DNA of 49,234 nucleotides, the filler included, from Jimgerdemannia flammicorona (taxonomy: Eukaryota), in the NCBI GenBank assembly GCA_003990765.1. It is 2 parts of 2 records of this genome, joined end to end, with 100 filler letters (N's around TTAATTAATTAA, not from the genome) between each part and the next. Parts side by side here need not be neighbours in the genome. Positions count along the whole stretch, not along the records: positions 24,671 to 49,234 come from RBNJ01000957.1; 1 more part is not named here. One strand, given 5' to 3'. Shown piece by piece: positions 5,804 to 48,383 of the stretch (the first letter of the stretch is position 1; every line of letters starts with the position of its first letter). Under the pieces are notes generated by a model. The model ran no database searches and was not told the DNA's origin. It saw only the letters and a list, made by a program, of their open reading frames with translations. A program made the position numbers and the translations under genes.

Positions 5804-5915
5804 CTCCGAATGCTTGTTGGTTGCTATGATACTAGTAGCTTGTCTCCAGAAACTGTGTTGAAAGTGTTGCCAAAAGATTGTGTAACCTGAATGTTACTGG
5901 AGAAAGGACATGTTG

Positions 5916-14341: not shown

Positions 14342-14467
14342 TATTGAGATGACAACTCAATATATCAATATATAATTGGTAATTTTACCAGTCTTACATC
14401 ATCTATCAGTAATGTATAAAATACATGTCCTATACAAGTTCAATAAAAATGCCCCTCTTTCTCAACA
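14342..14467 (+). repeat. copia 3' LTR
   Basis: Preceded by a decayed PPT (TTGAGCAGAAG). Begins TATTG (from TGTTG) and ends CAACA. Confidence 0.88.
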
Positions 14468-23103: not shown

Positions 23104-23134
23104 TAATTCCAGATCAGCACCACACAGACAGGGA

Positions 23135-24310
23135 CAATACAGGCAACATGGGCAACATGGGCAATATGGGGGGGCAAGATGGGCAAGATGGCAAGATGGC
23201 AAGATGGGCAAGATGGCAAGATGGCAAGATGGGTGACATGGGCAAGACAGGCAGACAGCAAGATAAGCGACATGGGCAAAATGGGCAAAATGGGCAACAT
23301 GGGCAACATGGGCAATATAGGCAGACAACACAGGTAACATGGGCAATATGGGCGGGCAACACAGGCAACACAGGCAATACAGGTGGGCAATATGGGCAAC
23401 ACGGGCAATGCGGGCAATATGGGCAGGTAAGATGGGCAAGATAGGCAAGACAGGCAAGATGGCAAGATGATAAGATGGCGACAGGGGCAAGATGGGCAAG
23501 ATGGGCAAGATGGACAAGACAGGCAAGATGGGCAAGACAGGCAAGACAGCAAGATGGCAAGACAGTAAGATGGGTGACATGGGTAAGATGGGCAGATGAC
23601 AAGACAGGCAATATGGGCAAGATGGGCAAGATGGGCAAAATGGGCAAAATGGGCAAAATAGGCAAAATGGGCAAAATGGGCAACATGGGCAGCATGGGCA
23701 ATACAGGCAGGCAACATGGGCAACATGGGCAACACAAGTGGGCAACACAGGCAATACAGGCAACATGGGCAACATGGGCAACATGGGCAATATAGGCAAT
23801 ACAGGCAACATGGGCAGGCAAGATGGGCAAGATAGGCAAGATGGGCAAGATGGTAAGATGGGTGACATGGGCAAGATGGGCAGATGGCAAGACAGGTGAC
23901 ATAGGCAAGATAGGCAAAATGGGCAAAATGGGCAACATGGGCAACATGGGCAACATGGGCAACATGGGCAACATGGGTGGGCAAGATGGGCAAGACAGGC
24001 AAGATGGGCAAGATGAGCAAGATGGGCAAGATGGCAAGATGCAATATGGACAACATGGGCAACACTGGCAGGCAAGATGGGCAAGACAGGCGACATGGGC
24101 AAGATGGGCAAAACAGGCAAAACAGGCAACATGGGTAACATGGGCAACACAGGCAACACAGGCAATATAGAACACAGGCAACATGGGTGGGCAAGATGAG
24201 CAAGATAGGCAAGATGGGCAAGATGGACAAGATGGGCAAGACAGCAAGATGGCAACATGGGCAATATGGGTGAGCAAGACAGGCAAGACAGGCTAGATGG
24301 GTAAGACAGG
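23135..24310. repeat. 9-bp minisatellite (GGCAAGATG/GGCAACATG/GGCAAAATG variants)
   Basis: ~1.17 kb of tandem 9-mer variants, directly visible. Confidence 0.95.
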
Positions 24311-24570
24311 AGGCACTAATAGGAGTAGGTCAGGTGCACTAGATGTCAAGTACTTGAGGTGGTTGGGGCTCACAACCCATACCCACTGAGTGGGGCAGGC
24401 CAGGTAGGAGGATCTAGTTACTCAGGTAGTGAGGTCACAACTCACATCCTAAAGGTGCAAGGCTGGGTGAGGGTGAAGGTGGGTTGAGATTGGGGTAGAA
24501 TGGGGCTACTGATGTTGTATGAGGACATGTGGTATGTTATAGATAGTTAATAAATGAGACTACAGCCTAA
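24311..24570 (+). mobile_element. probable 3' UTR of a non-LTR element
   Basis: G-rich. Ends TATAGATAGTTAATAAAT..., like the LINE 3' end at 43621-43650. Runs into the gap. Confidence 0.4.
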
Positions 24571-24670
24571 NNNNNNNNNNNNNNNNNNNNNNNNNNNNNN
24601 NNNNNNNNNNNNNNTTAATTAATTAANNNNNNNNNNNNNNNNNNNNNNNNNNNNNNNNNNNNNNNNNNNN
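24571..24670. other. assembly gap with artificial linker (44 N, TTAATTAATTAA, 44 N)
   Basis: Symmetric 100-nt spacer; the 12-mer contains stop codons in all six frames. Confidence 0.97.
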
Positions 24671-27600
24671 CAAGAGAATGCCTTCCTCAGAGCCCAGATA
24701 GCCAACTATGAGAACAGACCAGCACCTACAAATCTGACTCCATTCAGGCAACCACAGCAGCAGCCACCATCAAGAGTTCAAGAAGACCCTATGACAATGC
24801 TCACCAAGCAAATGAAGGACCTGGCCATCGTGGTTGCCCAGCTGAACAACCAAGGTAGAAGACAACAAGACTACCGTCATGATAACAGACCAGACTACTG
24901 GCAACAAGACAACAGAGGTCCTGCCCCCGCACTACCAGCTGCAACTACAGCCTCATCAGCGACTGGTTCCTATGGTCCCACCTGCTTCAGCTGTGGAAAT
25001 CAAGGCCACATCCAGAGGAATTGTCCAAGGAACCAATCCACCCAGTCCAATGACAGAAATGTCAACCTCTTTCAGATAGATGAAGAGACTCAGGAGATGG
25101 AAGAAGAAGCAGCCTGGCTCCATGGTCAAGAAGATGACATCTACCCATACTTCGAGGCTTTTCCATCCAAGGTGACATGGGAAGCTACCCTCGTGGAGAC
25201 TAGAGGACGAGGAAGACCACGAAGGAACCCCCCACCTCAACTGCCAGTAACAGTATCCACTGGCAAGCATCCGCAACATGGCCATTCTTCTTCAGACACT
25301 CCACAAGAACAGGAGAAGTGAGCTAGAAGAGATACTCCTGAACCAGAAGCTGGACCATCTAGGACAACCCCCAGCTCTACCCTGCCAGATCTTGAAGAAG
25401 ATGAGCATATGAGCATAGAATCTTCAGCTGACGAAATGCCCATCAGGAATGAGAGACTACACCCCAAGGGACCAAGACACCGAAGAAGCAGCAAACCCCA
25501 TGCAGCAGCCTCACTTTGGAAACATATCCGCCTACAGAATGCTGGTCTTACAGTTGAGCAAGTCCTCAAGAATGCACCAGAGGTCAGGCGAAAATTCCTG
25601 AAAGAAGCCAAGGAAGATACCAAGAGACTTCCAGTCCAAGGACTACACACTCAAGAACCTAGCACTATCCACATAGCCCATGAGAGCCAGCGATATGAAC
25701 ATCAATCTACAAGACTTGCCAATGGAAAAGTGCATGGTGAAAATGCCAGAATTCTTGTTGATACTAGAGCAGCAGTATGCATCATCACCCAAAGGATGTT
25801 GGAGCGAATTGGATGGGGAATAGATGAAGGAACCAAAGCAAGAGTTATCATGGCCAATGGATCAGCTTCCACATCCCTTGTACTTGTCAGAGACATCCCC
25901 ATTCAAGTCAGAAAGGCCTGCCTCAATGTACCCAAAGCTATCGTGACCCCCACAACCTCCTATGACCTGATCCTGGGAACTGACTGGTTAAGCTGAGTTG
26001 GAGCCAATGTAGATATCAAGAAACAACTCCTAGTCTTCTCCATTCATGGATAGAAGCACAAGGTGCCCATTGACTCGAAAGGATTATCCAAAAGGACGAA
26101 TCAAGCCTCAGAAACAGAATGGCAAGGACATGGCAACACCCCCACTACTACTGAGAATGAAAGTGAGGCCAATTTCCTACAAGAACTAGGAAGTGATTTT
26201 GATGCCCCAAGGGACCAAGAAAGCGAACAAGAAGACTCTTTCATTAGAGTTATTGGTGTTGAAGGTCTGGAAGAAAGCATTGATAGAGCCATTAATGCAA
26301 GGGCAGCACTTGAGTTTGCAGAACCATCTACTTAACCACCACCACTACTGGTAGAAAATTGGATCATGCGAGCCTTTTGTCAAGGCATATGTGAACATTT
26401 CATCAGCTTCCACTCATCAAGAGATGATTGCAGCAATTGCCAAATCCTGGATCTCAAGAAGGTTCCAATGCCAGAAATTGATGATAAGGATGAATTGAAG
26501 TAAGCACCATCCCACAGTCAAATACAACCTCCAACCCCGAAGACCTTCAAGAAGACCTATAAGGGAGGACAGAAGATTCTTGCCCACTAAACATTCGAGT
26601 CCCCTACCATTGAAGAAGAAAGCAGCAGCTCTTACACTATCACTCGGGCCCTCCAGATCACACAGCCCACCTATGACAAGTATCAGAAGAGATTCCCTAC
26701 CAGTAGGGAAGTCAAACAGCGAAATGAAGACTTTGTCAAGAAGGGACATTGTGATTATAGAAAGACCTTTATCTGCCACTGGTGTGAACATTGAGATGTT
26801 CACCTCAGTGAAGATGTCTATGAGAGCTGAGTCAAGAGAAAGGATCCTACCCTGCAAGAACCTCGAATTCGCTAGGCCTGTCGGAAGTGCAAAGAAATCA
26901 ACCATGAAGGAGATTGCAAGTTCAAGAGCAAGACCTCTATCTGGGACCTACCATTGGAAGTTCTTGCCATCATTCGCTGGTACTACTGCCCTCATCAAGG
27001 AAAAGAAGGTATCAATCTTGCCTTCATCCTTATGGAAGCTCTGGACCCTCTAGGAAAGACTGGATTCAATTACACAAGAAACTCAAAGACAGGAGCTCAC
27101 TGGCCTTTCTTCAAACTGGAGCACATGGACTTCTTACCTACAATGGCAACAGCTGAAGCACCATTTCTCAAAGCTCAACCAATTATCCAGGTCAAGCTGC
27201 TTTCACCCTGGACACAGCCACCTCTTGCACAAACAGATGGATCAGTTGGTTATGACCTCTGCCTCTCCTACCAAGCAAGAATCTGACCCAGAAGTACTAG
27301 GATTTTTGACCTACAGATTGCACTTGCTATACCACCTGGACATTATGGACAATTGGCCTCAAGATCCTCATTGGCAACCAAAGGAGTCACAGTAGAAGGA
27401 GGAGTCATCGATCAGGACTACCAAGGTCTCTTGAAGGCCATTATCTGCAATTCTAGTAGAACCAGCTGATTCTTCAGTCCTATGGAAGCCATCTGTCAAA
27501 TCCTGTTTATCAAGACATCACAGCCAACCATCCAAGAGGTAGACCAACTAGAAGATACCAACAGAGGACAAGGAGGCTTTGGAAGCACCAATAGAAATCT

Positions 27601-29442
27601 ACAGACACCACCTATCGAGGTTCATTTAGCAACAGTTGCTCAATTCCGACAAATGAGACCCCACATCTGCCACCCAATCTGAGCAAGAGAAGACATCCTT
27701 CTGCAGCCCTACCAACAAAAAGGCCTAGATGTGCACCTACCAGTAGAAGCAAACAACTTGATATTTGCACCATCACTGGAGCTTCAAAAGGAATACCACA
27801 TCCTCCTGGCTGAAGAACAAATTCATGACCAGATGTCACCGATCCACATCTCTATCAGAAACTTGGGCTTCAAAGTAATAACTATCCCCAAGGGAACAAC
27901 ACTGGGATATTTCGAACTACTGATAGACATCTATGAGAAAGAAGTCTTTGAATTCTTGGGAAATGGCAAGCCCTCTCTGGTGAGACTGACGGTACTAGGG
28001 AGGAAGACTCAGCAAATTCAGCAATCAAAGCTGTCGACATCGAGACAACTCTAACCAAGGACCAGCAACAACAGATACAGGAGTTGATAGAGGAGTACAA
28101 AGATATATTTACCACCACATATAATAACTTCCCACCATATCAATATGGAGAACACCCTATACATACTGGAGATGCAAGACTAATCCAACAATGACCCTAC
28201 TAAACACTATATTATCTGATTGAATTCGAACAACAATACATAGATGAAATGCTATGAAATAGAGTCATCAGACCATCATCAAGCCCCTGGGCTTCACCAG
28301 CAATCATAGTACCAAAGAAAGGAGGATGGAGATTAGTCATGGATTTCAGAAAACTCAACAAAATCACCACAGAAGATGCCTACCTACTGCCAAGAATTGA
28401 TGACCTCATCAATGCCCTCGGAAAAGCCAAATACATGACCACTACTGACCAGTTCCAAGGATTCCAAGTAATACCCATTGCTAAAGAAGATATCTGCAAG
28501 ATGGCCTTCATCACCAGACAAGGACAGTACGAATACCTACGAATGCCCTTTGGACTCTGCAATGCACCTGCCTCATTCTAACGAATGATGAACTATGTCT
28601 ACCGAGACCTCATTAGAAGAAATGTACTAGTGTACATAGATGATGTAATCATCTACTCTGAGACATTCAAGCAGCATTTGTAAGACCTCCATGAAGTATT
28701 CAATACCATTCGAAATTCAGGACTCAGACTCAATGCCAAGAAGTGCTTCTTCAGAAAACATCAAGTCGAATATCTGGGATATGTTGTCTCAGCTCAAGGA
28801 ATACATGCTGACCTCCACAAGGTAGAGAAAGTCAAGAACTACCCAACCCCGACCTCAGCAAAGGAGACCCTATCTTTCCTTATGCTGGCATCCTACTATT
28901 GATGATTCATCCCAAGGTTTTCAGATAAGACAGTACCTCTCCAAGATATCTCCAAGAAGGACCAACCATTCTACTGGAAAGAAGAATAACAAAAGTCATT
29001 TGACCTACTCAAGAAGGCCCTTACCAAAGCCCCTGTCCTGGTGTGACCAGACATTGGCAAACCATTCATCCTGGCAACTGATGCCTCAGCCTTAGGACTT
29101 AGATCAATTCTGTCTCAGCAAGATGACCAGAAGAGGGAGCATGTTATCGAATATGCTAGTAAGGCCACAAATGAAATACAAGCAAACTATGGAGCCACTA
29201 AGTTGGAATGCCTAGCAGTAGTTTGGACTGTGGACCACTTCCGACACTATCTCTTGGGAAAGAGATTTGCCCTCATCACTGACCATCAAGCTCTACAATG
29301 GTTGTTCAACAAGCCAGAGCCCTCAGGAAACTTCACTAGATGAATCATGTCTCTGCAAGAATATCAGTTCACTATTGTCTACAAGAAAGGTGCTAAAAAT
29401 TCCAATGTCGATACCCTGTCAAGAATCCCGCGAAACCAATAA
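24671..29442 (+). pseudogene. E1 gag-pol: Gag-PR-insert-dUTPase-RT-RNase H, ending before integrase
   Basis: One frame from 24671 to ~27990 with only C>T-type stops, then one frameshift. SPWASP, MDFRKLN, RMPFGLCNAPASF. Ends DTLSRIPRNQ* at 29440-29442. Confidence 0.9.
27182..27592 (+). pseudogene. dUTPase domain of E1, between PR and RT
   Basis: All five motifs: SVGYDL, SRSSLATKG, GGVIDQDYQG, ICQILF, RGQGGFGST. Confidence 0.93.
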
Positions 29443-29465
29443 GAAGGGAAGGAGCCCCCACAAGA

Positions 29466-30685
29466 ATGAACCAAGAATTGCACCTCGCCCTCACCTGGAG
29501 TCTGCACTATAGAAGCTTCAAGAAAGGAATCCAACCAGCTCACAAGTTGTTTATCCAAAGGAATTTCAAGAAATTCCAAGAAGGTAATGGTGAACTTTGG
29601 AGAGTAGAAGGAGAGCAGTACACCTGAGTTCCAAGAGAGGAAGCAATATTGAAGATCCTGATAACAAATTATGACCAAAATGCACACTAAGGAATTGGTG
29701 CCACAATCGCAAGAATCAAGAAGTGATACTGGTGGCCCAAGATGAGAAAACAAATTTCAATGCACATTCAACAATGTGATACCTGCCAAGATACCGACAA
29801 AAGCCTACCGATAGAGCACCATTAATATTGATTACAGCACCAGCTGGAGCCTTTCAAAGACTGGGAATAGACATTATTGGACCCCTACCAGTAACTAGCT
29901 AAGGAAGATGCTACATCCTCACTATTGAAGACCACCTGACAAAATGGCCTGAAGCCTTTGCCATTGAGACTGCCGATGCCCAGACAATTATTGGGATCCT
30001 GTATGATGAAATTTTCAGCCGCCATGGTGTGCCCAAGGAAATCATTACAGACCAAGGCCGAGAATTCATCAACCAAGCCATGAAGACCTTTGCGAGCAAC
30101 TTCAAGATCAAGCTATGACCAACAACAGCCTACCACCTACAGGCAAATGGACTTACTGAACGAATGAACCAGACCATCAAGCGAGATCTCAGTAGAACCG
30201 GAGATCAACTAAACTGGGATATCTATCTATCAGCAATTCTGTTCAGCATCTGTACCTCTAAGGCAACCACTATCCAACAGACCCCCTTCTATTTGGTGTA
30301 TGGCTGAGAAGCACAAGATCCTACTGAACCAGTCCAGCTAGATCTATCAAAATGAGTCACAGAAGAGATCACTCGGTTACATGACATACACCAGCAAGCA
30401 CGAGGATTTATTGCCAAGGCACAAGAATGACAAAAGAGGTACTATGACTGCAAAGCCAACCTCAAACCCCTGCTCATTGGACAAAAGGTTCTGGTGTACT
30501 GTACCATCATAGAAGGAAATTGGAGTGCCAAGCTTGAACCAAAATTGGAAGGCCCCTATCTCATACACCAAGTATTCTTGAACCACACTTATCAACTCAA
30601 GACCTTGGATAGAGTTATACTCAAGACCAAGATACACTACAACCGCATAAGACTCTACTACTCAAGAGAAGCAAAACGCATTTGA
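29466..30685 (+). pseudogene. E1 integrase, separate ORF
   Basis: Starts MNQELHL. Motifs WWPKM..CDTCQ, LGIDIIGPL, ITDQGREF, ANGLTERMN, KLEPKLEGPY. Confidence 0.9.
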
Positions 30686-30808
30686 ACAATCCTGTTCACT
30701 CTGTCTATATCATCTCTGCTGGAGATACGATGGACGTTTCACTTGGAACTCAAGAAAGCCAACAACATTGGAACTAGACTCAAGCCCATCTATGTGACAG
30801 ACATTGTT

Positions 30809-32000
30809 TTTTTTTTTTTTTTGTTTAACGGACTCTATGTCCCACAGATTTTTATTGGAAGGAAACCTAGACTATATAGGCCAAAACTCTCCCCCACCAC
30901 CCATCAAGCACTGCCCCCCCATTAACCTAGGCTAGCTATTGTCCAGCAGCTCGACCATGCCAGGTACAGCAGGGCAAAGTAGCCCACACCTCATTCTGCA
31001 CACCATGCTCTCCCTACCATCAGGGGAAACCCAGCCATATGCCAATGACCGAAAGCATACACCCGAGAACTCAATGTATGTACAAGGCCATGCCTGAGCT
31101 GAATAGAATAGCCCCTGCCACCCCAAAGGAAATGACAGGCAAAGAAAAAACCCTCATCAAAGCACAACACAGTGGGTAGGGCCTGGTTCTCCCAGTTGAG
31201 GTGAGTAGAGGACTTATACGTGAGGTGGGAGGAGACCCCCAATACCCTACTACTCAAGCCTGCAGGCCTCAATCATGTTGCCATGTCAGCTCCCGGTTCC
31301 AGTTGAGTGCAGCTAAGACGCCTGAAATGGGTAGCCTCAGGCCCCCCGACCCCCCTGGACAACCGGGGCCCAACCCCACAAATCACCAAAAGAAGCCGAG
31401 AGTGACACCTACCACCTAACTGCATCGCACCAATCAAAAGGCCCCACCGAAGCAGCACCCACCCCAGCCCTGACAACTGCCCCTAGCCTGGCACCCTACT
31501 GGTTCACCGTAATCGCCCTTCCTCCTATCTGTGACGGCCATCTCCCCTCCCATCCCGACATCACCCGAAAAACAGTTACCTATGCCAGAACTGCGCTCGC
31601 CGGGAAGCTCGCCAAAGCCAGAGGGCCCCACCACAGGTACCGAGGACCTGCAGGTAACCTATACTGAGCACTTGATGCCCAAGGTCGGCCAACTCCCTAC
31701 ATAGCCTGAGACACACCAAGACAACTCCTTGTTGGCAATGGCAAAAGGAAGAAGGTGCTGCACCAAAACAGGTACACCCCAGATGCAGCTGAAGGCACCA
31801 GAATCCGCAAAAAAGTGGAGGAATCACTGATCCGACACTGATAAAGGGGCAACACATCACTATTGCCCTCCTCCCACCATGCCCTTATAGGCACAGTAAA
31901 CCAACCCAAGGTAGAGGGGGGTAATATTAGGGGAAAGGGGACTCAGAAGGTCACCTACCAAACCTTGTGACTGGTAAGGTAGCGGAGAAAGGAGCTAATG
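30809..32000 (-). mobile_element. ~1.2-kb non-autonomous poly(A) retroposon, copy 2
   Basis: T run ~30807-30822. TSD GTGACAGACATT(G/A)TT at 30794-30808 and 32001-32015. Confidence 0.92.
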
Positions 32001-32330
32001 GTGACAGACATTATTACTAAGAAATTGCCTCGGATTACAAGAAATACTATTTCCGATGGGTTCGAACCCCAGCCACAACTATGGGAGCCCTTGCCCTAGA
32101 CAAGGATGGCCAGTCCTCACAAATGCGCTGACATTCTGCTCATCCCTGGAGTTAAGACCACCCAACTCTGTATAACCCTCACCGCTGAGGACAGCTCTAA
32201 TTTTGCAAGGGGCAGATGTGACATACACAATTGACAATGGAGTACCAGTGGCTGCTAAGATCAGACAACATAATGGCATGACAATTGAATAGACAGCCTG
32301 ACCCATTAGGTGATCACCCCAAAAGGAGCA

Positions 32331-33304
32331 ATGATAATCTGAGCCAAAAAGAAGACTACATTATTTAAAGAACCATACTCTGCCTCAGGAATCAGCACCA
32401 AAGAACAAGTACCCACCACACAATGCCTCCTATCCGCCACCCCAACCAGACCTTCCACCACTCTTCCCCTGCCTGGCCCAAAGACTCTAATCCTTGAAGC
32501 TATCAAAAAGGCTATTTGGTGTCCAGACACCTCTGAATATCTGAACTTCTATACCGAGGATCTTGGACACTTCATCAATTACCAGTACATAATGACCCAA
32601 CAGCTCAAAGATACCACTGAACGAATGACCCTCTGGCATAATTATGAAATTGGACACCGCCTTCATAATGAAACCCAAGAAGGCAACCAGAAAGACCTCA
32701 TTGCTGAAATGTTAACCACCAGCCGGCTAATTAAGAGAGCCCTCCATGTCCACCAAATCTTCCACTATATTCCCTGGGCTATAGCACACTTACAAGGAGT
32801 GACTGCTGGAAGTCTTGCCCGTCTCTCAACTGAAGATACAGACTGGATAGAATCAGAAGTAGCCAACTCCATTGGTAGTAACCAGGTCGCTGTAGGAAGC
32901 CAACAAACTGAGCTCACTCAACCAGGCTTTTACACCACTCCACTCCGAGACAACTATCAAGGTCACCTAATGAGTCTCATGGAAATCTTCAAAGGACCAC
33001 TCATTACCATTACAACACCTGTTGGAGCAACCCCAACTACTCACCACTCTGTCAGCTACAATTCGCACCTCATCATTTGGGAACCAAATCAGAAGTCCCA
33101 GAAGTCCCTACCAACATGGAAACTGAAGGATCTGAGGAAGAAGAAGAGAAGGAACAAAGAATCTACCAATCCTCTGTCCACCTTCAAGCAGTCCAAGGGT
33201 TGGAGAATATCATCGAAGATGATTGGCCACAATTCTACCCCCTCACCTCCTGGCCGGCGCTCCCACCCTTTGAAGAATGGGATGAAGAAGTCACAACCCA
33301 GTAA
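32331..33304 (+). CDS. E1 accessory ORF-Y, uncharacterised; probable frameshift into an acidic tail
   Basis: TTERMTLWHNYEIGHRL...ALHVHQIFHYIPWAIAHLQGVT is homologous to ORFs at the same position in E2 and E3. Start and end uncertain. Confidence 0.65.
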
Positions 33305-33403
33305 GATGATTGGATCACTGACGAAGGGTATTTTACCATTCAGTGATCCAACGTCCGTTTCCTCAGTCCAGTCAGCCAATGTTTGTCAGCAAGTCAGCAA
33401 CAT

Positions 33404-33584
33404 CCATTTTCAGCAATACTACCCACAATATCCATATCCAGCACTAGCACTCATCTTATCCCAATTCAGCGCAAACAATTGTCACACCCATTTTCAGCAA
33501 TACTACTCACAACATCCATATCCAGCACTAGCACTCATCTTATTCCAATTCGGCACAAACAATTGTCACACCCATATTCAGCAA
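33404..33584 (+). repeat. 84-bp tandem repeat, ~2.15 copies, upstream of the E1 TATA box
   Basis: CCATTTTCAGCAA recurs at 33404, 33488 and 33572. Confidence 0.9.
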
Positions 33585-33622
33585 TTAAACTACCACAATG
33601 TAGTATACCTTAGCCCCCCCCC

Positions 33623-33676
33623 ATAGCTAGCAAATTTGTATAAATAACCCTATATCTTAGAGTGAATAAACCTCAG
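33623..33676 (+). promoter_or_regulatory. E1 LTR core: TATA box and poly(A) signal
   Basis: TATAAATA-N18-AATAAA. 50/54 identical by eye to 46405-46458 (minus strand). Confidence 0.8.
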
Positions 33677-34920: not shown

Positions 34921-36199
34921 TCACCATTACTACTAAGTCTTCTTCACTACTGAGATTCTATATATCACTGAGATATACCTCTTATTCTAAAGTTGATCAT
35001 AGAGACTATATCCACCAATACTCAAAATATTTATAGAAATTTATATCTCATAATAGATTGATACAATATTGTCAACATTTTTATCCATTATATTCAATAC
35101 AATATAGAGAGGACCCATGGTCTACTGGTGTTAATTCTAAGACAGCTAGTGTGGCTAATTTAGCTCCAGGTATTACTGCTATTATTTCCAGAGCTCTTGA
35201 TGATTTCAAAGATACTGAGATAGATATTAATATTTTGACCAGCTAATCTCTTGAAGAATTATCAGTAAACTTCAGTAATGAGTCTGAGTCTGAGTCTGAG
35301 TCATCATTTGATGTAATATTGACTATTTAGTCAAAAATTATAATAATTTGATACAACCTCCTAAGATACTTCGGTTTGGTGATACTCTCTCTCACTCTAA
35401 TATTAGATATTATTATATAGTAGTTACTGAGTCCTTCAAATATATCAGATTCTCTTCAAGGTATATCTCTTAGACTAACTCAAGTTTATTATAAGTAAGT
35501 TCTTATTAGAGTATCTTCCCAAGATCTTATAGTCCTCAAACTTCTTATCTTTAAACTGTCTTGTTATCTCTTAGATTACTTGCAAGGAATTGAGAGTAAG
35601 TAAACTAGAACTGACTTTATTTTGAAGGAAATAAGAGGGGTATTTATATAAAATATAATTCAATGGTTGCTAAGATATAAAGCTAAATATAAATTCCAAT
35701 AACCAATAAAATACTAGAACACAGAAAACTATAGTTGTCAGTATAGATTCCAGTATTAGTATAGATGGTTGCACAAGTTCAAGGTACTGGTAGAACTTGG
35801 TATACAGGAAAAGGATGCTAGAAGAATTCTGAGTCACACAAGGTCAGAATGCTAGTAGAAGAATTAACTATTATATGGGAAAAGAATACTGGCAGAATTT
35901 GGTATTACCAAGAACTTTAAAGCAGGATGTTCAGAACCATGGGGGCTTCATCTTTGTCATTGCTAAAGGAGATGAGATCTGTAAATATTTTATTCATCTC
36001 ATCACATAGATCGCACATTTTGTATATATTGTACAGAATAATATCATCACTGATGATATCATCATATTTGGTGGCAGCAAGGGCTCTCTAATATATGATA
36101 TTCTCTTTCACAAAATAAGAAACAAATGTGAGCTCTTGGAGAGGTCTAATCTGAATACTGGGGCCTTAGAATACTGAGATCAATCCTTACAGGAACTGA

Positions 36200-36700
36200 T
36201 CTGAGTTGTCCTGAAGGATGAGATACCAGAACTCTTCTATCTCATCACTATTAAGAGTAATAGTAGACTGGACCTCTGTAGCTACCATGGCTTCTAGTGT
36301 ATTGATATGATGGACTGACAGATCCCTGAAGTCTGAGACTCTGGTATACTCTAAGTTAGGAATTAATCATAGTATATACCTGAAGATCTGATAAATCTTC
36401 TTGGCTGTTCTTATTTTATATATATCTATAGAAGTGGTATCTTGTAGCTCTTGAGAGTGGCTTGAGGGAATTCCTGGCAGAGAAGGTTTCTTATTTCATA
36501 TTCTTACCACATCTGGAGACATTCAGTAGCAATGGTGATTCTTGTCTCTATCTTGTAGCAGTAGAAGATATAATGATAATAGTCACCAGTACCCAATTGA
36601 CACTAGGAGTCCTTGTGGTGCAGGTCTTTATAGCTCTTTGGATGTCTTAGAATATCCTTTTCTAAACTGAGGGGCCTTGGTGGTTTCTTGATCTTGAGGT
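36200..36700 (-). pseudogene. E2 accessory ORF-Y homolog
   Basis: DIQRAIK...TECLQMW*EYEIRNLL...IRTAKKIYQIFRYIL*LIPNLEYTRVSDFRDL, with frameshifts. Confidence 0.65.
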
Positions 36701-37344
36701 TTAGCAAGTAGCAGGCATTCTATTTATAATAAGTCTTTAAGCTATTTCAGAATTAGTAGGTATTGTTGAGTTGCTGCTACTGTGGTTCCTTGATCCTTCT
36801 TTTATATTCCTCAAGGTATTTATATTGTGGTCCCAATAACTTACAGTTGGTCATCATTGCTCATCTTGTAACCTAGGTGAGTTATGCTGTATAATCTTCT
36901 TGTGCTCTGATCTGGTAGCTTGCAAGGAAAGACTGTCTCTTATGCTGATGTTATTATTCTGAGGTTACTGTTACATTTTCCTTCTGAATAAGGATCTTCT
37001 TGAACATCCTTATTCATTGGTCTAGTTCTGAAAAATTTTCTGATCTTATAACCTCTGATAGGGGGTTGAAAAGTGGTATTTATAGGCTAGCATCTTTCCT
37101 ATATATTTTGATGTGATGGTGAAGAGTCACTCCCTTTATATAAAGTAAGGGCCTGATTCTGATCTTGACTAATCAGTTGACAGTTCAAACTCCTCTGGCT
37201 TCAAAAGTCTTACAGATGAGTAGTTGCTAGTACCATATCTCTTAGAGAATGGTCCAGACAGATTACCTGCTAGTCATGAGTTGTGCTATTATGATTCACA
37301 GACTAGAACCTCATGGGCAGTCATTATGTTTTGCTTTTTTTATA

Positions 37345-38536
37345 TAGGTTCATGGTACTTCTTGAGTCTGTTCCTATATACTATGGTAGGCAGTATGGTC
37401 TCTGAGAGTTTTCTAAGCCAGAAGGTAGTTTTCTTGATATTTTGCACATAGAAGAGTTCTTCCCATTTGGGCTCTAGTTTTTGCAACTATGAGACTTCTA
37501 CTATATTTCAATATAGTAGGACCTTTTCTCTGATTTGGATGGGTTCTAGGATCTTGTGATTCTTTTCTGCATTCTTCTTCATCAGTACTTGTGACTTGAT
37601 GATGTAATCTTTAGCCTTCTTCCTGATTTGGTATAGTCTCTAGATTTCTGAATCAACCCATCTCCAAGTTAGGTCTAGATTTGTAACTGAGGTTCCATCA
37701 GAATCTTCTTCTCTAAAGAGTAGTTCTCTTGGGGTAAAGTGTATACTCTGTGACTATATATCTTATAGGATAGAGAGAGCAGTTGGGAGATAGTTATCCC
37801 AATTCTCATATATGTCTGAGATCTTCACCAAGATATTCTTGAGGGTCTTATTGGTTCTCTCTGTCTGTCTATTTTCATGAGAGTGGTATGTGGTGGTCTT
37901 GATGTACTAAATCTTATATTTCTGATACATTATCTTATGGAATTCATTGACAAATTCTGTGCTGCAGTCTGTAGTGATTTACTTTGATGTCTTGTAGTAG
38001 TAGATAATTTCTCAGTATAGGAAGTTAGCTATAAAGAAGGCATTGGCTTTTTGTAATACTCCTGCTTCAATCTATTTAGTAAAGAGGTCTACAATAACTA
38101 TAATGTAGCAGTTTCCTAATAGTGTTACTGGTAGTGGCCCAATGATATCTATTACAATGTGGTGGAAGGAGATAAGCTCAATTCTTGATGACTTGAGTGT
38201 CTGGTCTTGCTGATCTTATTTCTGTTTTTGGCACTTATTACACCCTTTGACAAATTGGCACAGATCTTCTTCTATTTTGGGCCACTATATAGTTCTTTTT
38301 ACTTTATTATATGTGTTGGTTCCTTCTAGATATCCTTGTTAATATACTTCCTTTATTACTTGATACTTCTTGTGTTTGGGTATTATAAGCTTTCCTCCTT
38401 TTCTGAGTATAGTATTGTCTAGTTTAAACTATTTCCAAGTCTGGTTGATGATGGTGATTGTCCAGGATTTGAGATGGTTGGGTATCTTCTACTGCCTAAG
38501 ATAGCTAATTAATCCATAGTATAACTCCTTATTCAT
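37345..38536 (-). pseudogene. E2 integrase, separate ORF
   Basis: ATG at 38536 overlaps the pol stop (TATGAATAA). Colinear with the E3 integrase. Confidence 0.88.
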
Positions 38537-38744
38537 ATTGAATAGTCTTGAGGGGAGTGTTTTGAGGTATCCTTGAGAGTGTATTGGCATTAGCATTGGT
38601 TCTTTCTGGACAGTGCTTAACAGTACAGTCATCCTCTTGCAGTCTATAGATCCATCTGGTATATATTTCTTTAGGGTTCAGAGTGTGGAATAGCCAGGCA
38701 AGAGTGGAATAGTCTGTTTGAATAGTGAAGTGTTTCACAGCTAG

Positions 38745-39254
38745 TAGTGCTCCAAACAAGTCAATCCAGATGGGATTCAGATGGGATTCAAATCAATGAT
38801 TGTTTTGATTTCCAAATTAAATAATTAAATATTTATATCAATAACTTAATGAATAATCATCTAAATTTAATAATCTTGGTGTCATTTAAAAGCTCTTAAT
38901 AAGGCTTTTCTAATGATACCAAGAACATTAAAATTAGATTATGTATTACTGAGATATTAAGGAAACCATTCCATTTGATGAAATTTCCAAAATCAGAAAT
39001 TCAGATGTTTTCCTTCATAACTCAGGAATGCATAATCTGATTTCAATATTCTTAGTATCATTAGATAGGCCTTATTAAGAGATTTCAAATGACACAAAGG
39101 TCATCAAATTTGGATGATTATTCATTGAGTTATTGATGTAAAAATTTAATTGTCTAATTTGGAAATCAAAACAATTATTGATTCAAATCCATCCAGATGG
39201 GATTTGAATCTTATTCAAGTTGATCTGGATTAAATTGACTTGTTAGGAGCACTA
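38745..39254. mobile_element. hAT-like fold-back MITE inserted in E2 RNase H
   Basis: TIRs TAGTGCTCCAAACAAGTCAAT / ATTGACTTGTTAGGAGCACTA. Degenerate 8-bp TSD ACAGCTAG/CTGGCTAG. Removing the element plus one TSD copy restores colinearity with E3 (HYYLARxHF). Confidence 0.88.
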
Positions 39255-40544
39255 CTGGCTAGATAGTAGTGGAACTTATCTACTACCCAAACTACTACTA
39301 AGCATTTGAGCTTGTATGACTCATAGTTCTGTTCTGCTCCACAGGTACCTCAGCTTATATAGGAGATGACATATTCATGTCCATCTTTCTTCTGAGCTAG
39401 GACTGTTCCAAGTTCTATAGTACTTGAATCTGTCTATAGGATGAACTTTAGGTTCCAATCTGGTCTTCTGAGGATGGGTGCTTGGGTCAACCTGGTCTTG
39501 AGTTCATTAAAGATTTTTTGGCATTCCTTAGTCCATTCAAATTTGGTCTCCTTCTTCAGTAGCTCATAGATAGGTACTGCAATATTGGAGTATCCTTTGA
39601 TGAATCTTCTGTGGTAGGAGATCAGTCCAAGGAAGACATAGACTTCTGTGGTTGTTCTGAGTCTTGGGTAGGCTGCAACAGCCTCAATCTTTATAGAGTC
39701 TGTGTGGATTTTGGTCTGGTTGATGAGGTGTCCTAGGTAGGTAATTTTCTGACCTGCAAACTTACACTTCTTGGGCTTAATGTAGAGGTCATGCTCTTTG
39801 AGCTTCTTGAGGACTAGCTGTATAAGGTTGATATATTCCTATACAGTATTATTGATGATCACATCATCAACATAAACAAAGAGTCATTTTCTGATCTTAT
39901 TGCTGAAGACTCTGTTCATCATTTGCTGAAAACATACTGGGGCATTGCATATTTCAAATGGCATTTGCAGATAGATATAGGTGATATCAGATATGATAAA
40001 GACTGATTTCTCACTGGTATCTTGAGTGAGACCAATTTGATGGAAGCCTGAGAACAGATCCAAGGTGGTGTAATATTTGGCTTCACTTCCAAGAGTGGTA
40101 AGGATTTCTTGAATATTTAGCAAGGGCTGTCTATCCTTCTTGGTAATTGCATTTGAGCTTCTTATAGTCAATGTAGAGTCTTGGAGCAAACTCTCCAGGC
40201 TTGCTTCCTTTCTTTGGAGCAAGGATAATGAGTGAAGCCCAGAGACTGATAGCTTGCTTAATAATTCTGGCTTCTTCCATTTCCTTGAGTTCTGCTCATA
40301 GCCATTCTCTGTAGGTAGGTGGTATAGGTCTGGCTTTCTGATAGATGGGCTTGGTATTACTGGTGTTAACTTCATAGTAGTATTTGAGTTCTTGATTGTA
40401 AATATCTCTAAAGTCTATAGCAAGTACTCCTTCATTCTAGTGCAGGATCTTGAGAAGTTGTTCTTCTAGAGGAAAGTTTTCTCCAATGATATATGTATGC
40501 TTATTCTGATCCTTGTCTTTCTTGTACTCAAGTTCAGTAATCTT

Positions 40545-40985
40545 AGTGGTAGTATAGGCTCCTCTTCTAGTAGATCTAAAGCCTTGTTCTCCTCTCTTGG
40601 TCTTGATGAGTTTGATGACTTTGGTGATCTTGAGCTTCTTGATTTCATGGATCAGCATCTGGCCAATCCTGTAATACTTCTTGACTTCAAATGGGGTGGT
40701 AGAGTTGTAATTTCTGAATATAAGGAAGATCTCACCAGTATAATCAGAGTCAATTATTCCTCCTTTAACTGAGATTTCACTTTTGGTCAGACTGCTTCTG
40801 GTCTTGATAATTCTGGCATAGCTCTCTAGAAATTTGACTCCAATTCCAGTATCAAGTAGAGTGGTGGTCTATGGTTCAAAGGTAGCATCTTGAATGCTAA
40901 CAAGGTATATTTCTATATCTCCTTCAGTCTTATATTCTGGGATCTTAGCTTTGGGGTAAAACTTCTTAATCTTGAGAGTGATGTC
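40545..40985 (-). pseudogene. dUTPase domain of E2, upstream of RT
   Basis: LDTGIG, KTRSSL, GGIIDSDYTGEI, RIGQMLI, KRGEQGFRST. Confidence 0.9.
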
Positions 40986-41320
40986 TGGTTCTTGTTTCTC
41001 CTCATTATCACTATCAGCTTGAAGCTCTGAGGGCTGGTCATCTTCTTCGGCTTTCCTTTTTGCTTTAGTAGCTTCTTACTCATGCTTCTGTTGGCAGATT
41101 TTTCTGACTTTACTGATACAGGACCAGCAGTCATTCAGGTGTTCAGAGCAGTACATCCTAGTACCATGGGGGTATCTTCCTTGAGGAGCATAGCCATTGA
41201 TGATGTTATTATACCACTGCTCATCTGTGAGCTTGGGTGGGGTGCTGGATATTGATAGATACTTAGAGGAATGGCACCCTGATCCAGTGGCAGGCTTAGG
41301 TGACCTTGGTGCTGCTGTTT

Positions 41321-43688
41321 GAAGAGAAGAGATTTAGTAGGTACTGATGATGGCAAGTTCAGAGACAGCACTAGTGGAGGATGACTTACAGTGGGATTTT
41401 TGGAAGAAAATGGCAGGAGTTGAGATAATTCTGGAGAAAATGACAGCAATATATAATGAAGTAATTAGCTCAGAGGTATGAATTAGGGAGCAGAGCTTGG
41501 GTCTTATAGCTCTACTGTTTAATAATAAGGAGAGAAGAGAGGAGTAGAAAAACTGAAGACTGATCATGCTTTTAAATATTGATTACAAACTGGTCATGAA
41601 GATACTGATGACTAGGCTGTAAGAGGTGGCTCAGCAGGTTCTGGGGGCTGAGTAGAGAAGATTTATAGAGAGATGTCTGATCAGAAATGAGACAGCCTGA
41701 GTGTATGATATCATCAAGAGAGCTCATATTACTGGGGTAGATGGATAGCTGGCTTTTTTAGACCAAGAGAAGATCTATGACAGAGTCCAGTGAGTATGGT
41801 TGGAAGGAGTGCTAAAGCATTTTGGGGTCTCCCCTAGAGTCCAGCAGCCTTGGTCAGTCTGCTGGAAGAGAGTCAGGCAGCAATTATAGTGAATAGGTAT
41901 AAAGGGGTTTTATTCCCTCTGAGCAAGTGAGTGCTACAGGGGGATCCACTGTTATCAATTCTGTATATATTATCCCTGAAGCCTCTTTTGGATAGGATAT
42001 GGTGAAAGGTGGGGGGGTTGGACATTCTGGGAATTAATTAGAAGGTAGAGGCCTTTGCTGATGATATGATATCAGGCTGGGGTTGGCTGAAGATATTGTA
42101 GTACTAAAAGATATAGTAGAGTGATATGAGGGGTGCTCAGATACTAAGCTCAACTGATATAAGTGTGAGACTTTGGTGTTGGGAGGAGGGATAGTAGATG
42201 GAAATGTGATTGGAACAATTGTCCCTACAGAAGAGGCTGTTTGCTATCTGGGAATTTACTTTTCAGTATATGGCTTCTTGTTACCTTACAGATAGTGGGA
42301 GCAGTGATTGGCAGAGTGGAAGAGTACTCTCTTAGAGTGGAGTGGTCATTATATATCTCTGGCAGAGAGGGTGATAGTACTGAATATATACTGGCTATCT
42401 AAGCTATAGTACCTAGTATCACTTGAAATTTCTAGTGTAAGTGGTCAAGTAATTGTTGAAGATAGCCAGGATCTGGATATGGGCAGAATTACAGAGTCAG
42501 ATTGGTTGAGAGATGTTGACCTGGCTAGTGGACTGGAGAGGCCTAGGTTTGGTGGATTTTTCTAAGTATCTTCATTACTTAAGAGTATGATGGCTAAAGT
42601 AAGCAAGTGAGTTGAGGGGCAGAGAGTGGGTTCCTCTTATACAGAGGGTGTAAGAGACCTAGTTCTCTCCCCATGGTATAACTGGAGATCCTTTATCTCT
42701 GGAGGCTTTAGAGAGAAGTCAGAGGATATACTATAGGAGATTCTGGTGGAGAGTGATTAATGGAGCTCACCATATTGGTCTCCAATAGTAAGGTGATGAG
42801 GGAGAGAAGGAGTGGAGATCCCAGATATAGAGGTGGGACTGCCTTCTGTTAGGCAGGGGGCTAGTGGATGACTTCTGTTTGGAAAATAGTGTGAAATATC
42901 TTTAGAAGTATGGGAGGGATCTATAGCTAGAGGTATGGCAGGGGGTAGGAATTGAAAAAGAGTGAGACTGAAATAGTATTTAGCTATAGAGCAAGCAGGT
43001 GATAAGATGGATTCTCCCTAAGTTCTGAGTAATATGGTGGAGAATTTTATAATATAATGTGATGTTGAACTACCAGATGGATCACTTGGTGGAAGGAGAT
43101 ATCTAAGAGTATAAGGAGTGTCTGAACATTGGACAGGAGGGAGGTGTGGTACAGACTTCTGAATACTAGTTAGGGGAGTATGAGGTGATGGATAACTTTT
43201 GGAAGATGATTGAGGGGTGGCTGAGAGTATATCCACCAGGGTTGGTGGTAGGAGAGAGGTGGGGTGACCTCCAGAGGAGGCTGGTGGGGAGGTTGAGAGA
43301 TGAGTAGTTGATATTAGGATGGGTGCTAGTGATTTGGGTCAGACTTGTAGAACTTTGGCTATATATATTTAAGGAGGGTTAATAGTTGACATTAGGGATA
43401 AAGTTGGCTAGATAGAAGTGACTGATGACAGACCTATTGAATGAGTGGTGGAGGGGTGGAAGTGCTGGTAGAGGGTATCAGAGATAACTGGTGGAGACAA
43501 TCTGTAGGAAAAGTGGAAGGAGAATTGAGATGGCAGAAGGGTTCAGAGTATTTTGAAGAAATAATAAGGAGAAGAGAGAGCTTCCAAGTAAGATTAGGTG
43601 AGGGGGTTCATTTGTATTAGTATATTATAGATAGTTTAATAATAAAGTGAAAGTCCTTATAACTATAAAAAAAAAAAAAAAAAAAAAA
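41321..43688 (+). mobile_element. LINE copy E (divergent subfamily), 5' truncated, with poly(A) tail
   Basis: WDFWKKM, LIMLLNIDYKLV, DQEKIYDRV, AFADDM (~42051). AATAAA, then an A run at 43667-43688. Confidence 0.9.
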
Positions 43689-46223: not shown

Positions 46224-46487
46224 TGTAACATAGTGGACGCTTACTCTTGAAAGTATGTCAGATTTCTGTATCTTGAAAACTTAACTGTTCTGACTCTCGC
46301 AGAGTCTCTTGAAGTGGCAGGGGAGGGTGGGTGAGTTCGAAGTGTATCTGCCTGCAGGCTTACTAGTTTCTTTGCTTATCTCTTTGCTTTTGAACTATTT
46401 CGATCTGAGGTTTATTCACTCAAAGATACTGGGTTATTTATACAAGTTTGCTAGCTATAAGAGGGTGGTTAAGTAATAAATGAGTCA

Positions 46488-46738: not shown

Positions 46739-47200
46739 CTATTCAAACTCCCAGGCTTCAACAGTCTGTATGGTCTTGTACTGTACGATTTGCTGCATGA
46801 CCGTTTCCCAATGATGTCTTCTCACTTTCTCAAAGTTGGTAGGGGTTACTCCTCTCAGGTGGTCTATTGCTGCTTCATCTTCTCGGAATAGCTTGTGGAT
46901 CCTTTTGGCAATAGTGATCTGTGAGTGGGAGAGTTGACACTCGGCAATCCAGTCCTCCTTGGTCTTTGCTGGATCCTGATTGAGCACCTGTCCAAGCTTG
47001 AAGTACTCTTGGAATTCTGCCTAATATTGATAGACCCTAAAGTGCGAGATCCGAGAGAGATAAGTCTGCACAATACTCTGAATATCCTCATAGAATGGCT
47101 CTATGGTCGGAGGCTCGGTGGTGTGCCATTGTCTTTCGATGGCTCTTTGGGCAGCACTAGTGATCTTGAGTACCATTGCAGTACTTTTATTACTGGCCAT
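46739..47200 (-). CDS. E3 accessory ORF-Y (~153 codons, one internal TAG)
   Basis: ATG at 47200 lies just inside the integrase 3' end. MASNKST...YFKLGQVL...AKRIHKLF..AIDHLRGVT. Confidence 0.72.
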
Positions 47201-48383
47201 GATATTTCTTGAGTCGGTTTTGATGAATGGTAGTGGGGATTATTGTGTCTGAGGGTTTTCATAGCCAAAAGGTGGTCTCTTTTATATCTTGCACAAGGTA
47301 AGGTCCTTCCCACTTGGGCTCCAGTTTTTATGACCATGAAGCTTCTACCATGTTCCGATATACCAGGACCTTGTCTCCTATCTTGATAATCTCCAAGGGC
47401 TTGTGGGTCTTTTCTGCATTCCTCCGTTGTAGTATCTGCACCTTGGTTATGTAATCCTCAGCCTTCTTCCTTATTTGGTGTAGTCTCCATATTTCCACGT
47501 CCACATATTTCCATACAGCATCTCCATTGGATGATAGGGTTCCTTGAGAACATTCTTCTCTGAACAGCATTTCTCGAGGGGTAAAGTGGGTACTTTGTGA
47601 TCGGATGTCTCGGAGAGCAGATAATGCTATTGGCAGATAGTGATCCCAGTTCTTGTAGTTATCACAGATCTTGGCGATAACATTCTTGAGGGTTTTGTTG
47701 GTTCTTTCTACTTGTCCGTTTCCTTGAGGGTGATAGGCTGTGGTCCGAATGTGCTGGATCTTATACTTCTTGTAGAGAACTTCAAAGAGCTGGTTCACGA
47801 ATTCTGTTCCTCTATCTGTAGTTACTTGTATTGGGGTCTTGAACTAGCAGATGATTTCCTTGTGGAAGAAATTGGCAATTGACTGTGCATTGGCTTTCTT
47901 GAGGGGTCCTGCTTCTATCCACTTCGTAAAAAGGTCTACGATGATAATGATGTATCGGTTGCCAGTCAAAGTCAAGGGTAGGGGGCCGATTACATCCATT
48001 GCAATGTGGGCGAATGGTACTGGTTCTATGTGTACTGATCCTGGGACTTGATTTCGTTGGTCTTGTTTCTGTTTCTGGCATTTGTCACAGGTCTTGACAA
48101 ATTGTCTGATATCTTCCTCCATCCCTGGCCACCATATTGTTCTCCTTGCCTTATTATATGTATTTGTTCCTCCTAGATGGCCAAGTTTGTATACTGATTT
48201 CATCACTTGCTCCTTCTTGTGTTCTGGTATGACTAGTAGTTTTCCTTTCTTTAGTGTTTCTCCGTCAGTTTCGAATTGTTTCCATGTTCTGTTGATAATC
48301 GTTTGTGTCCATTCTTCCAGATGTTGGGGCATCTTTCGCTGTCCCAGGTATGTAATAATTCTGTAGTAGAGCTCCTTATTCAT
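47190..48383 (-). pseudogene. E3 integrase, separate ORF
   Basis: Starts MNKELYY. GHLG..WWPGM..CDKC zinc domain, DDE core and KLEPKWEGPY. A few C>T stops. Confidence 0.92.

Follow-up and report, generated by a model that had tools for sequence, protein, structure and literature searches.

A putative non-envelope third gene behind pol in dUTPase-bearing Ty3/gypsy elements of Jimgerdemannia flammicorona

The DNA analyzed here, termed the window, is a stretch of 49,234 nucleotides (nt) from Jimgerdemannia flammicorona (GenBank assembly GCA_003990765.1) that joins parts of two records, with 100 filler letters between them; positions 24,671 to 49,234 come from RBNJ01000957.1. Pfam scans of 104 six-frame open reading frames (ORFs) and a self-BLAST comparison show that the window consists of nested eukaryotic transposable elements, among them three Ty3/gypsy elements designated E1, E2, and E3 (Table 1). 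Behind the integrase of each, on the element's own strand (3/3 copies), lies a short gene that we call ORF-Y. An earlier note, made from the sequence alone, had described a conserved non-envelope gene following integrase in three divergent gypsy elements. This description holds: the peptides it quoted from E1, E2, and E3 were all found in their places, and the carriers are indeed divergent, with pol amino acid (aa) identities of 58 to 61% between E2 and E3 and 36 to 47% between E1 and E3. A gene is present at the span it gave for E1 (32480 to 32870), but the gene is longer than proposed there, and it follows the E1 integrase only after an intervening retroposon without long terminal repeats (LTRs). 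We consider it very probable that ORF-Y is a real, element-encoded gene kept by selection. As judged from sequence comparison, it appears to be a genuine third gene (ORF3), not of the envelope (env) type, of a dUTPase-bearing Ty3/gypsy lineage.

All three window copies of ORF-Y are pseudogenes, as are the adjoining pol genes. The E3 copy is 79.7% identical, without gaps, to the intact metagenomic protein P0025 and is colinear with it across all 153 codons; its open frame (47239-46739, minus strand) is interrupted by a single in-frame TAG. In E1, the ORF-Y core sits in a 427-codon open frame (32343-33626). The gene starts at an ATG at 32423 (MPPIRHPNQTFHHSSP), and its first 16 codons match the start of the intact E1-type protein P0024 before a frameshift near codon 16. 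The helical core (32442-33104) is 71% identical to P0024 and is followed by a deletion of about 24 codons and a second frameshift at about 33104-33107. The acidic and aromatic tail that the earlier note had suspected in E1 is real and lies in another frame (33107-33301, stop at 33302-33304), where it is 71% identical to residues 253-322 of P0024. The E2 copy is spread over three frames, with six in-frame stops and two frameshifts, and ends in ...APMVLNILL and a stop.

Table 1. Positions of ORF-Y, its surroundings, and the other elements in the window (aa, amino acids; RT, reverse transcriptase; LINE, long interspersed nuclear element)
Feature	Position	Strand	Remarks
E1 ORF-Y (E1-type)	32423..33304	+	Intact form P0024, 325 aa; two frameshifts
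E2 ORF-Y (E2-type)	35917..36718	-	Intact forms P0007, 247 aa; P0021, 259 aa; P0008, 342 aa
E3 ORF-Y (E3-type, 153 codons, core only)	46739..47200	-	One TAG at 47021-47023
E3 pol end and ORF-Y start, overlapping	47187..47207	-	pol ...NRLKKYHGQ-TAA-TAA
Conserved spacer block upstream of ORF-Y	32085..32180	+	Common to E1 and L001 (L001:8-100)
Non-LTR retroposon, 1195 nt	30806..32000	-	Poly-A on minus strand; between E1 integrase and ORF-Y
E1, two 84-nt tandem repeats	33400..33567	+	93% identical; between ORF-Y stop and TATA block
E2, two repeat pairs	35772-35899	-	Spacing 65-71 nt; between ORF-Y stop and TATA block
E3, array of four to five copies of 15-bp palindrome TTAGACATTGTCTAA	46488..46602	-	
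E1 TATAAATAACCC...AATAAA block	33639..33670	+	335 nt past ORF-Y stop
E2 TATAAATACCCC...AATAAA block	35616..35648	-	269 nt past ORF-Y stop
E3 TATAAATAACCC...AATAAA block	46411..46442	-	297 nt past ORF-Y stop
E1 integrase C-terminus with GPY/F	30431..30685	+	...LEGPYLIHQ...NRIRLYYSREAKRI and stop
E2 integrase end	37340..37363	-	...NRLKKYHEPI and stop
E1 dUTPase fragment	27287..27469	+	PF00692, E 2e-12; between protease (25322-25993) and RT (28258-)
E2 dUTPase domain	40440..40868	-	PF00692, E 2.4e-17; upstream of RT (40414-39887)
Gypsy element E1	about 24.6-33.7 kb	+	Pfam and self-BLAST
Gypsy element E2	about 46.1-35.4 kb	-	Pfam and self-BLAST
Gypsy element E3	46.4 kb to window end	-	Pfam and self-BLAST
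LINE	206-5905	-	Pfam and self-BLAST
AT-rich copia element	about 8.1-15.5 kb	+	Pfam and self-BLAST
Second LINE	16308-23002	+	Pfam and self-BLAST; ends in 9-mer minisatellite (23000-24400)

The likeness among the ORF-Y copies lies at the protein level and exceeds chance. By BLASTP, E1 and E3 share 26 of 100 residues (E=2e-6, single comparison), and tblastn against the six-frame window recovers E1 from E3 (E=2e-4) and E3 from E1 (E=0.006). E2 is weak by itself (tblastn E 0.056 and 0.54) but collinear, and an outside locus, L001, matches both E2 (2e-30) and E1 (8e-15) by tblastx. At the nucleotide level, BLASTN self-comparison of the window finds no match between the ORF-Y of E1 and those of E2 or E3; the conservation of the protein despite nucleotide divergence is thus borne out. 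Intact outside proteins align to the window copies with high significance (P0024 to E1, E=8e-122; P0007 to E2, 7e-73; P0025 to E3, 2e-82).

Profile searches place these copies in a small family. A profile built from E1, E3, and one close match retrieved 11 of 1,835,955,588 representatives at E≤1e-3 (7 at E≤1e-10; lengths, 40 to 342 aa), and a second search, over 90% clusters, gave 14 proteins at E≤0.01 among 2748 candidates. The intact relatives, 153 to 342 aa long, are all stand-alone ORFs without a name on short metagenome contigs. The 10 clusters examined list 20 members, which without exception come from metagenome contigs (0.5 to 4.8 kb) at ENA or JGI/IMG; five are annotated as "hypothetical protein," and the rest are nameless. 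A metagenome scan with four E2-type sequences added one relative (L001, 1535 nt) among 196 pattern matches, and three scans of viral contigs yielded none among 1, 119, and 73 pattern matches.

Three forms of the protein can be told apart. The E1-type (P0024, 325 aa) and the E2-type (P0007 and P0020, 247 aa; P0021, 259 aa; P0008, 342 aa) consist of a core, a second module, and an acidic tail, and their intact members (247 to 342 aa in the E2-type) begin at a conserved MPP.R.N. The E3-type (P0015, P0019, and P0025, each exactly 153 aa) is the core alone, starting with MANN.. and ending in ..EAWEFE; its three members come from different contigs and keep the same ends at 75 to 80% mutual identity. 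P0012 and P0013 are more distant and have only the core in common with the others. Between elements, ORF-Y is 26 to 30% identical at the amino acid level, compared with 36 to 61% for pol, and so appears to evolve much faster than pol. The groupings given by the two genes conflict. By pol, E2 and E3 belong together, with E1 apart, yet the E2 ORF-Y is built like that of E1 (MPP start, spacer, second module, and acidic tail), and E3 has the short form. Either E3 may have lost parts or a module may have been exchanged.

The carriers are Ty3/gypsy (Metaviridae) elements bearing a dUTPase, which could be assessed in E1 and E2, as the window end cuts E3 within RT. In E1, Pfam recognizes the order CCHC gag, protease (PR), dUTPase, RT, RNase H, and integrase; this order recurs in E2, where a LINE fragment is lodged within the element. 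The Ty3/gypsy pol order PR, RT, RNase H, and integrase (H2C2 zinc finger plus rve core) spans 25322-30115 in E1 and about 40414-37490 in E2; the E3 pol retains RT, RNase H, H2C2, and rve at 49233-47331. A zf-CCHC domain lies in the E1 gag ORF (24623-25318), and a CX2CX4HX4C motif was read by eye in an E2 ORF (44819-45154). The integrase C-terminus carries a GPY/F module (EGPYLI in E1 and WEGPYLV in E3), and no chromodomain was found in the three elements by the Pfam scan of window ORFs. E2 alone has both ends in the window, and these align at 60% identity over 317 nt (35403-35702 versus 45797-46102); a LINE and a minisatellite cut E1 short at its 5' end, and the 5' end of E3 lies beyond the window. 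CpG depletion is extreme in all elements (e.g., 36000-41400, 11000-15500, and 17366-23002), with observed/expected values of 0.01 to 0.02 in E2, copia, and one LINE and 0.12 to 0.35 in younger elements. Element GC content drops with age from about 0.5 to about 0.3. This pattern suggests that CpGs in the host's transposons are heavily methylated and deaminated.

The earlier note had further read the integrase as split and had taken this split, together with the dUTPase and ORF-Y, to define a candidate new multi-cistronic gypsy lineage. The split proved to be decay: the E3 integrase ORFs share one frame and are separated by a single stop (47844-47846, minus strand), which is a nonsense mutation and not a gene boundary, and the E1 pol is broken into many pieces. 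Because the split is decay and a dUTPase between PR and RT is an already known layout, neither feature defines a designed multi-cistronic lineage.

Structure prediction with AlphaFold2 bears out an all-helical core. For the E3-type (alignment of 26 sequences), the model is confident (mean predicted local distance difference test score [pLDDT], 89.6; predicted template modeling score [pTM], 0.80) and has seven helices, at residues 2-25, 40-75, 81-88, 92-105, 109-114, 120-124, and 128-151. The E1-type model has the same helix order over residues 20-151 (pLDDT mostly 63-94; overall, 62.3), beyond which a helix and three strands are modeled with moderate confidence, ahead of a disordered end (tail pLDDT, <50). 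The best conserved stretch of the family, A-[KR]-[KR]-[IV]-[HY]-x-[IL]-F, coincides with helix 4 and is preceded by the short helix 3. Modeled as a homodimer, the E3-type scores 0.48 (median of three runs), compared with 0.00 for the best control, with contact agreement of at least 92% and partner pLDDT of at least 64. The dimer mark is reached by 21 of 30 microbial proteins solved as pairs and by none of 23 solved as single chains; for eukaryotic proteins, the corresponding counts are 17/29 and 0/30. The predicted interface is antiparallel and involves residues 40-76 (helix 2) and 84-94. Judging from these models, the E3-type probably forms a symmetric homodimer via its long second helix.

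Beyond the core, the E1- and E2-types continue with a small second module (..LQDNPDQ..F.GPPI..) and a disordered tail of 85 to 180 aa that is acidic and rich in aromatic residues and proline. The tail carries a net charge of -14 to -29 and 5 to 20 aromatic residues in five of the six tailed members examined (the sixth, P0012, has a charge of -4), and E2-type tails end in a conserved P-x-[IV]-LNF (P0007, P0008, P0021, and window E2). This composition would fit an acidic transcriptional activation domain, which is a functional class and not a homology family. Across eight members, the highest 19-residue Kyte-Doolittle mean is at most 1.07 (8/8), with no hydropathy resembling a transmembrane (TM) segment, and the only env-type Pfam match among 26 members is Glycoprotein_B in a single member (E 0.15). 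The models, too, look like those of a soluble protein. Because it has no TM segment, ORF-Y is apparently a cytoplasmic or nuclear protein and not an envelope protein.

Searches of Pfam, PDB sequences, and folds all failed to match ORF-Y significantly to a described accessory domain. Pfam gave nothing above threshold in any of the 26 members. Foldseek returned no PDB match at E≤0.001 for either model (best, 0.42 and 0.59), BFVD viral models likewise gave no match at E≤0.001, and VIA-align against 48,161 chains reached Z scores of 3.9 and 4.3 at best, with none at Z≥5. The best ESM Atlas values, 0.86 for the E1 core and 0.95 for the E3-type (the latter to unnamed prokaryote or phage clusters), carry no information. 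For GDSL/SGNH esterase and DEDDy exonuclease, two enzymes known from other ORF3s, there was no Pfam match at E≤1 in 26/26 members or at E≤10 for the window copies.

Full-text literature searches returned no description of such a protein, which is weak evidence of absence, because a family defined by sequence is out of reach of text searches. In plant Ty3/gypsy elements, conserved, uncharacterized extra ORFs located between pol and the 3' LTR were reportedly described by Steinbauerova et al. in 2011; they belong to the plant lineages Tat/Ogre and Athila and resemble ORF-Y in position. A parallel in layout is provided by the bdelloid rotifer elements Juno, Vesta, and TelKA, which, according to the available text of Rodriguez, Kenefick & Arkhipova 2017 (PMC5408684), combine a CCHC gag and a GPY/F integrase with a dUTPase placed between PR and RT. 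Like ORF-Y, the bdelloid ORF3s lie downstream of pol in dUTPase-bearing Ty3/gypsy-like elements; as described in that text, they are family-specific and diverse (paramyxovirus-like env, small TM proteins, GDSL esterase, and DEDDy exonuclease) and usually expressed from spliced messages, whereas ORF-Y has no TM segment and no Pfam match (PMC5408684). Among fungi, basidiomycete elements such as PosPlaTy3-5 carry a dUTPase between PR and RT, and a figure legend (Figure 3) in the same source marks an "add. ORF" of unknown function in chromodomain gypsy elements (Novikova et al. 2010, PMC2864245, available text). The "add. ORF" resembles ORF-Y as an additional ORF in fungal gypsy elements, some with a dUTPase, but its carriers have a chromodomain, for which the Pfam scan found no match in the window elements; the available text gives no sequence of this ORF, which may prove identical with ORF-Y (PMC2864245). 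Entomophthoralean genomes, in turn, are enriched in transposon-borne dUTPase, according to the part of the preprint consulted (bioRxiv 10.1101/2023.09.13.557621). ORF-Y appears to match none of the ORF3 types described. What is new here is the ORF3 family itself, which was previously unnamed and has a fold without a recognizable relative.

The junction with pol differs among the elements. In E3, the ORF-Y ATG (47200-47198) lies 11 nt inside pol in a different frame. In E2, a spacer of about 620 nt separates the integrase end (about 37340) from the ORF-Y ATG (36718). The 1.7-kb gap between integrase and ORF-Y in E1 is mostly foreign, and the spacer measures about 530 nt without the retroposon. 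One block of this spacer (Table 1) is shared with L001, at 80% identity over 41 nt (tblastx E=2e-5), and more weakly with E2; the remaining spacer is unalignable between E1 and L001. In both, the block opens an upstream ORF of 40 to 42 codons that starts with MA(S/N), and it contains TTGTATAAC. The block may serve as an internal promoter, as a splice site, or as a leader ORF, or it may be left over from an E3-like junction. We also observed that its ATGGCCA(G/A)T equals the ORF-Y start in the E3-type.

Downstream of ORF-Y, all three elements share an arrangement. The ORF-Y stop is followed after 269 to 335 nt by a conserved TATAAATA...AATAAA block, around which E1 and E3 have 114 nt in common at 77% identity. 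The pattern TATAAATAMCCC-N10-30-AATAAA has exactly three matches in the window, each at this distance past an ORF-Y stop and on the same strand, and none of 100 shuffles had any match. Between stop and block lie repeats, in all three elements. Each 84-nt unit in E1 ends in AAACAATTGTCACACCCAT, which holds the palindrome ACAATTGT; the repeat motifs recovered behind ORF-Y also include TTAGACATTGTCTAA and AAACAATTGTCAC. The E3 palindrome array lies 140 to 250 nt past the ORF-Y stop and 65 to 160 nt ahead of the TATA block. Its degenerate core RACAWTGTCYAMA, with at most one mismatch allowed, has 10 matches in the window, 9 of which fall within the 115 nt of the array (1.19 expected). The block is probably the core promoter and poly(A) signal of the 3' LTR. 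The repeats and the TATA block look like an LTR U3 region, which most likely makes ORF-Y the final gene ahead of the 3' LTR.

As to function, the earlier note had suggested a DNA-binding trans-regulator or anti-silencing factor. We favor this reading, tentatively, in the form of an element-specific DNA-binding regulator (activator or anti-silencer) that acts as a dimer on the repeats behind the ORF and whose tail recruits host factors. The ORF-Y dimer would recognize the repeated or palindromic motifs of its own element upstream of the LTR TATA box, through the pair formed by helix 3 and the conserved helix 4, and the tail, where present, would recruit host transcription or chromatin factors. 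ORF-Y would then act in trans. Expression of the E3-type may be coupled to pol termination or proceed from a spliced message; the E1- and E2-types may use a spliced message or an internal start within the 0.5- to 0.65-kb spacer. A regulator of this kind is compatible with the predicted dimer, the helix-turn-helix (HTH)-like helix pair, the tails, and the repeats beside the TATA box. It is favored because from one subtype to the next the repeats are as dissimilar as the proteins, because ORF-Y diverges so much faster than pol, and because methylated CpGs in the transposons evidently undergo mutation in this host. Foamy-virus Tas/Bel1 and the VANC proteins of Arabidopsis VANDAL elements are element-encoded proteins that bind repeats in the element's own noncoding DNA and switch the element on. 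They too are encoded 3' of the enzymes and have an acidic effector region. The analogy is one of function, not homology, and hmmscan of Pfam-A gave no named transactivator family. A more specific version, in which ORF-Y is a dimeric, sequence-specific switch for self-activation or de-silencing that coevolves rapidly with its own repeats in a methylating, mutating host, seems unlikely to hold in full.

Several results weigh against a DNA-binding regulator. The helical core is near neutral and not basic (net charge, -3 to +2; pI, 6.2 to 8.7), and Pfam, PDB sequences, and fold searches gave no significant match to any DNA-binding family. The best DNA-binding match in Pfam, HTH_Tnp_Mu_2, reaches E values of only 0.031 to 0.052 in three members and falls at the N-terminus, outside the core; the PDB sequence profile gives only H-NS at E 0.8 to 1. 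By eye, the core has a ParB-like arrangement (short helix, turn, K/R-rich helix, then a further helix pair), and ParB-type HTH proteins do appear in the VIA-align list: SopB (3mky_P; Z 3.5; root mean square deviation [rmsd], 4.9; 89 aligned; model residues 61-153) and VirB (3vwb_A; Z 3.2; rmsd, 4.8; 84 aligned), both over the C-terminal two thirds of the core. These rows lie inside the noise of that list, however, the best Z of which is 4.3, and hhalign against the single F-plasmid SopB sequence gave a probability of 0.2, with no sequence match. The E3-type, which has the clearest palindrome array, has no acidic tail, and the window copies are dead in three of three cases. The TATA/AATAAA block was seen in no 5' LTR copy in the window, where E1 is 5'-truncated, the 5' end of E3 lies outside, and the E2 5' region matches at the identity given above. 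Finally, the 375 nt upstream of ORF-Y in L001 show no recognizable integrase by tblastx against three integrase ends.

The same near-neutral core and missing DNA-binding match would suit a protein-protein adaptor that does not bind DNA at all, which we regard as the main rival, if a rather unlikely one. In such a scheme, the dimer would bind Gag, integrase, or a host factor, and tail motifs would either hijack host machinery for degradation, trafficking, or nuclear import or block a pathway by which the host restricts or silences the element, in the manner of lentiviral accessory proteins of the Vpr/Vif type. The conserved short motif that ends E2-type tails and the repeated clusters of acidic residues with F, W, or L point the same way, and divergence faster than that of pol is typical of genes in conflict with the host. 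The motifs were read by eye, however, no partner is known, and the E3-type works without any tail. It is quite improbable that ORF-Y is instead a particle replication cofactor, one that binds and chaperones RNA or cDNA or helps with packaging or nuclear entry, alongside Gag or integrase in the virus-like particle. Its place at the 3' end of the coding region, the 11-nt overlap by which the E3-type could be made in step with pol, and the predicted dimer would all be in keeping with that role, but the protein has no zinc knuckles or basic stretches, and a strongly acidic tail repels nucleic acid. In addition, tblastn with five family members at E≤1e-3 matched the ORF-Y loci alone and revealed no likeness to the gag of the same elements.

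Two further explanations deny ORF-Y the status of a separate gene. The overlap of its frame with the end of pol in E3 would be expected if it were a C-terminal extension of Pol, made by frameshifting or read-through. We hold this to be highly improbable: the Met starts are conserved (MANN.. and MPP.R.N), and E1, E2, and L001 have a spacer of 0.4 to 0.65 kb with stops in all frames. A profile search for a fused form found none among 4542 candidates of 600 to 2000 aa, which is weak evidence. The stops or frameshifts in all three window copies might, alternatively, indicate conserved noncoding sequence of an untranslated region or LTR that is open by chance. This explanation is the least probable of all and is close to refuted, as the likeness exists at the protein level only, intact full-length relatives have conserved ends, and 26 sequences yield a confident fold prediction. 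Codon positions agree: pooled identity over 303 codons is highest at second positions (0.62), followed by first (0.475) and third (0.35) positions, a biased count, given that protein likeness guided the choice of segments. The DNA pairs available for ORF-Y are 26 to 43% identical in protein, with saturated synonymous sites. A non-env, element-encoded ORF3 remains the reading that we prefer.

Extra genes behind pol are a route by which retrotransposons acquire new lifestyles, be it through envelope genes, enzymes, or regulators, and most non-env ORF3s remain black boxes. ORF-Y is compact, confidently foldable, and a predicted dimer, and it lies directly upstream of repeats and a conserved promoter block. 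This combination of fold, dimer, and adjoining repeats makes it testable whether an LTR retrotransposon codes for a protein that activates or de-silences the element itself; for trying this question of self-regulation, one short protein and the 15-bp palindrome would suffice. If the answer were positive, ORF-Y would add to Tas and VANC a self-activator whose helical fold has not been seen before and which belongs to an LTR retrotransposon, outside the retroviruses. Independent of function, a profile is now at hand with which annotators can recognize a "hypothetical protein" that recurs in metagenomes and in transposon-rich eukaryote genomes.

The remaining observations concern other elements of the window. 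The retroposon between E1 integrase and ORF-Y is flanked by a perfect 12-bp direct repeat, GTGACAGACATT (30794-30805 and 32001-32012). A second copy (9686-10882), 86% identical, sits inside the copia element within a perfect 14-bp target duplication. The corresponding 1.19-kb repeat (9687-10875 versus 30804-31991) had been considered as an LTR pair of E1. This candidate was rejected: both copies start with a T-run and lie between perfect duplications, of 14 bp (1197 nt apart) in one case and 12 bp (1195 nt apart) in the other, and the repeats are therefore non-LTR retroposon insertions. The left flanks of the two insertion sites are alike (TCAAGCCYAT), which hints at a target preference.

Between the E1 protease and dUTPase (26876-27286, plus strand) lies a Cys/His cluster (CRKCKEINHEGDC) of noncanonical spacing, which recalls the extra zinc knuckle described for the pol of rotifer Juno in the available text of PMC5408684. 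The two LINE copies (206-5905, minus strand, and 17366-23002, plus strand) are inverted and 72% identical, with a GC skew of about 0.5, a very strong strand asymmetry; a fragment of the same LINE family lies inside E2 (41498-42657). At the 3' end of the plus-strand LINE, the 1.4-kb minisatellite (23000-24400) is made of 9-mers (GGGCAACAT and variants) and occupies the expected place of the E1 5' LTR.

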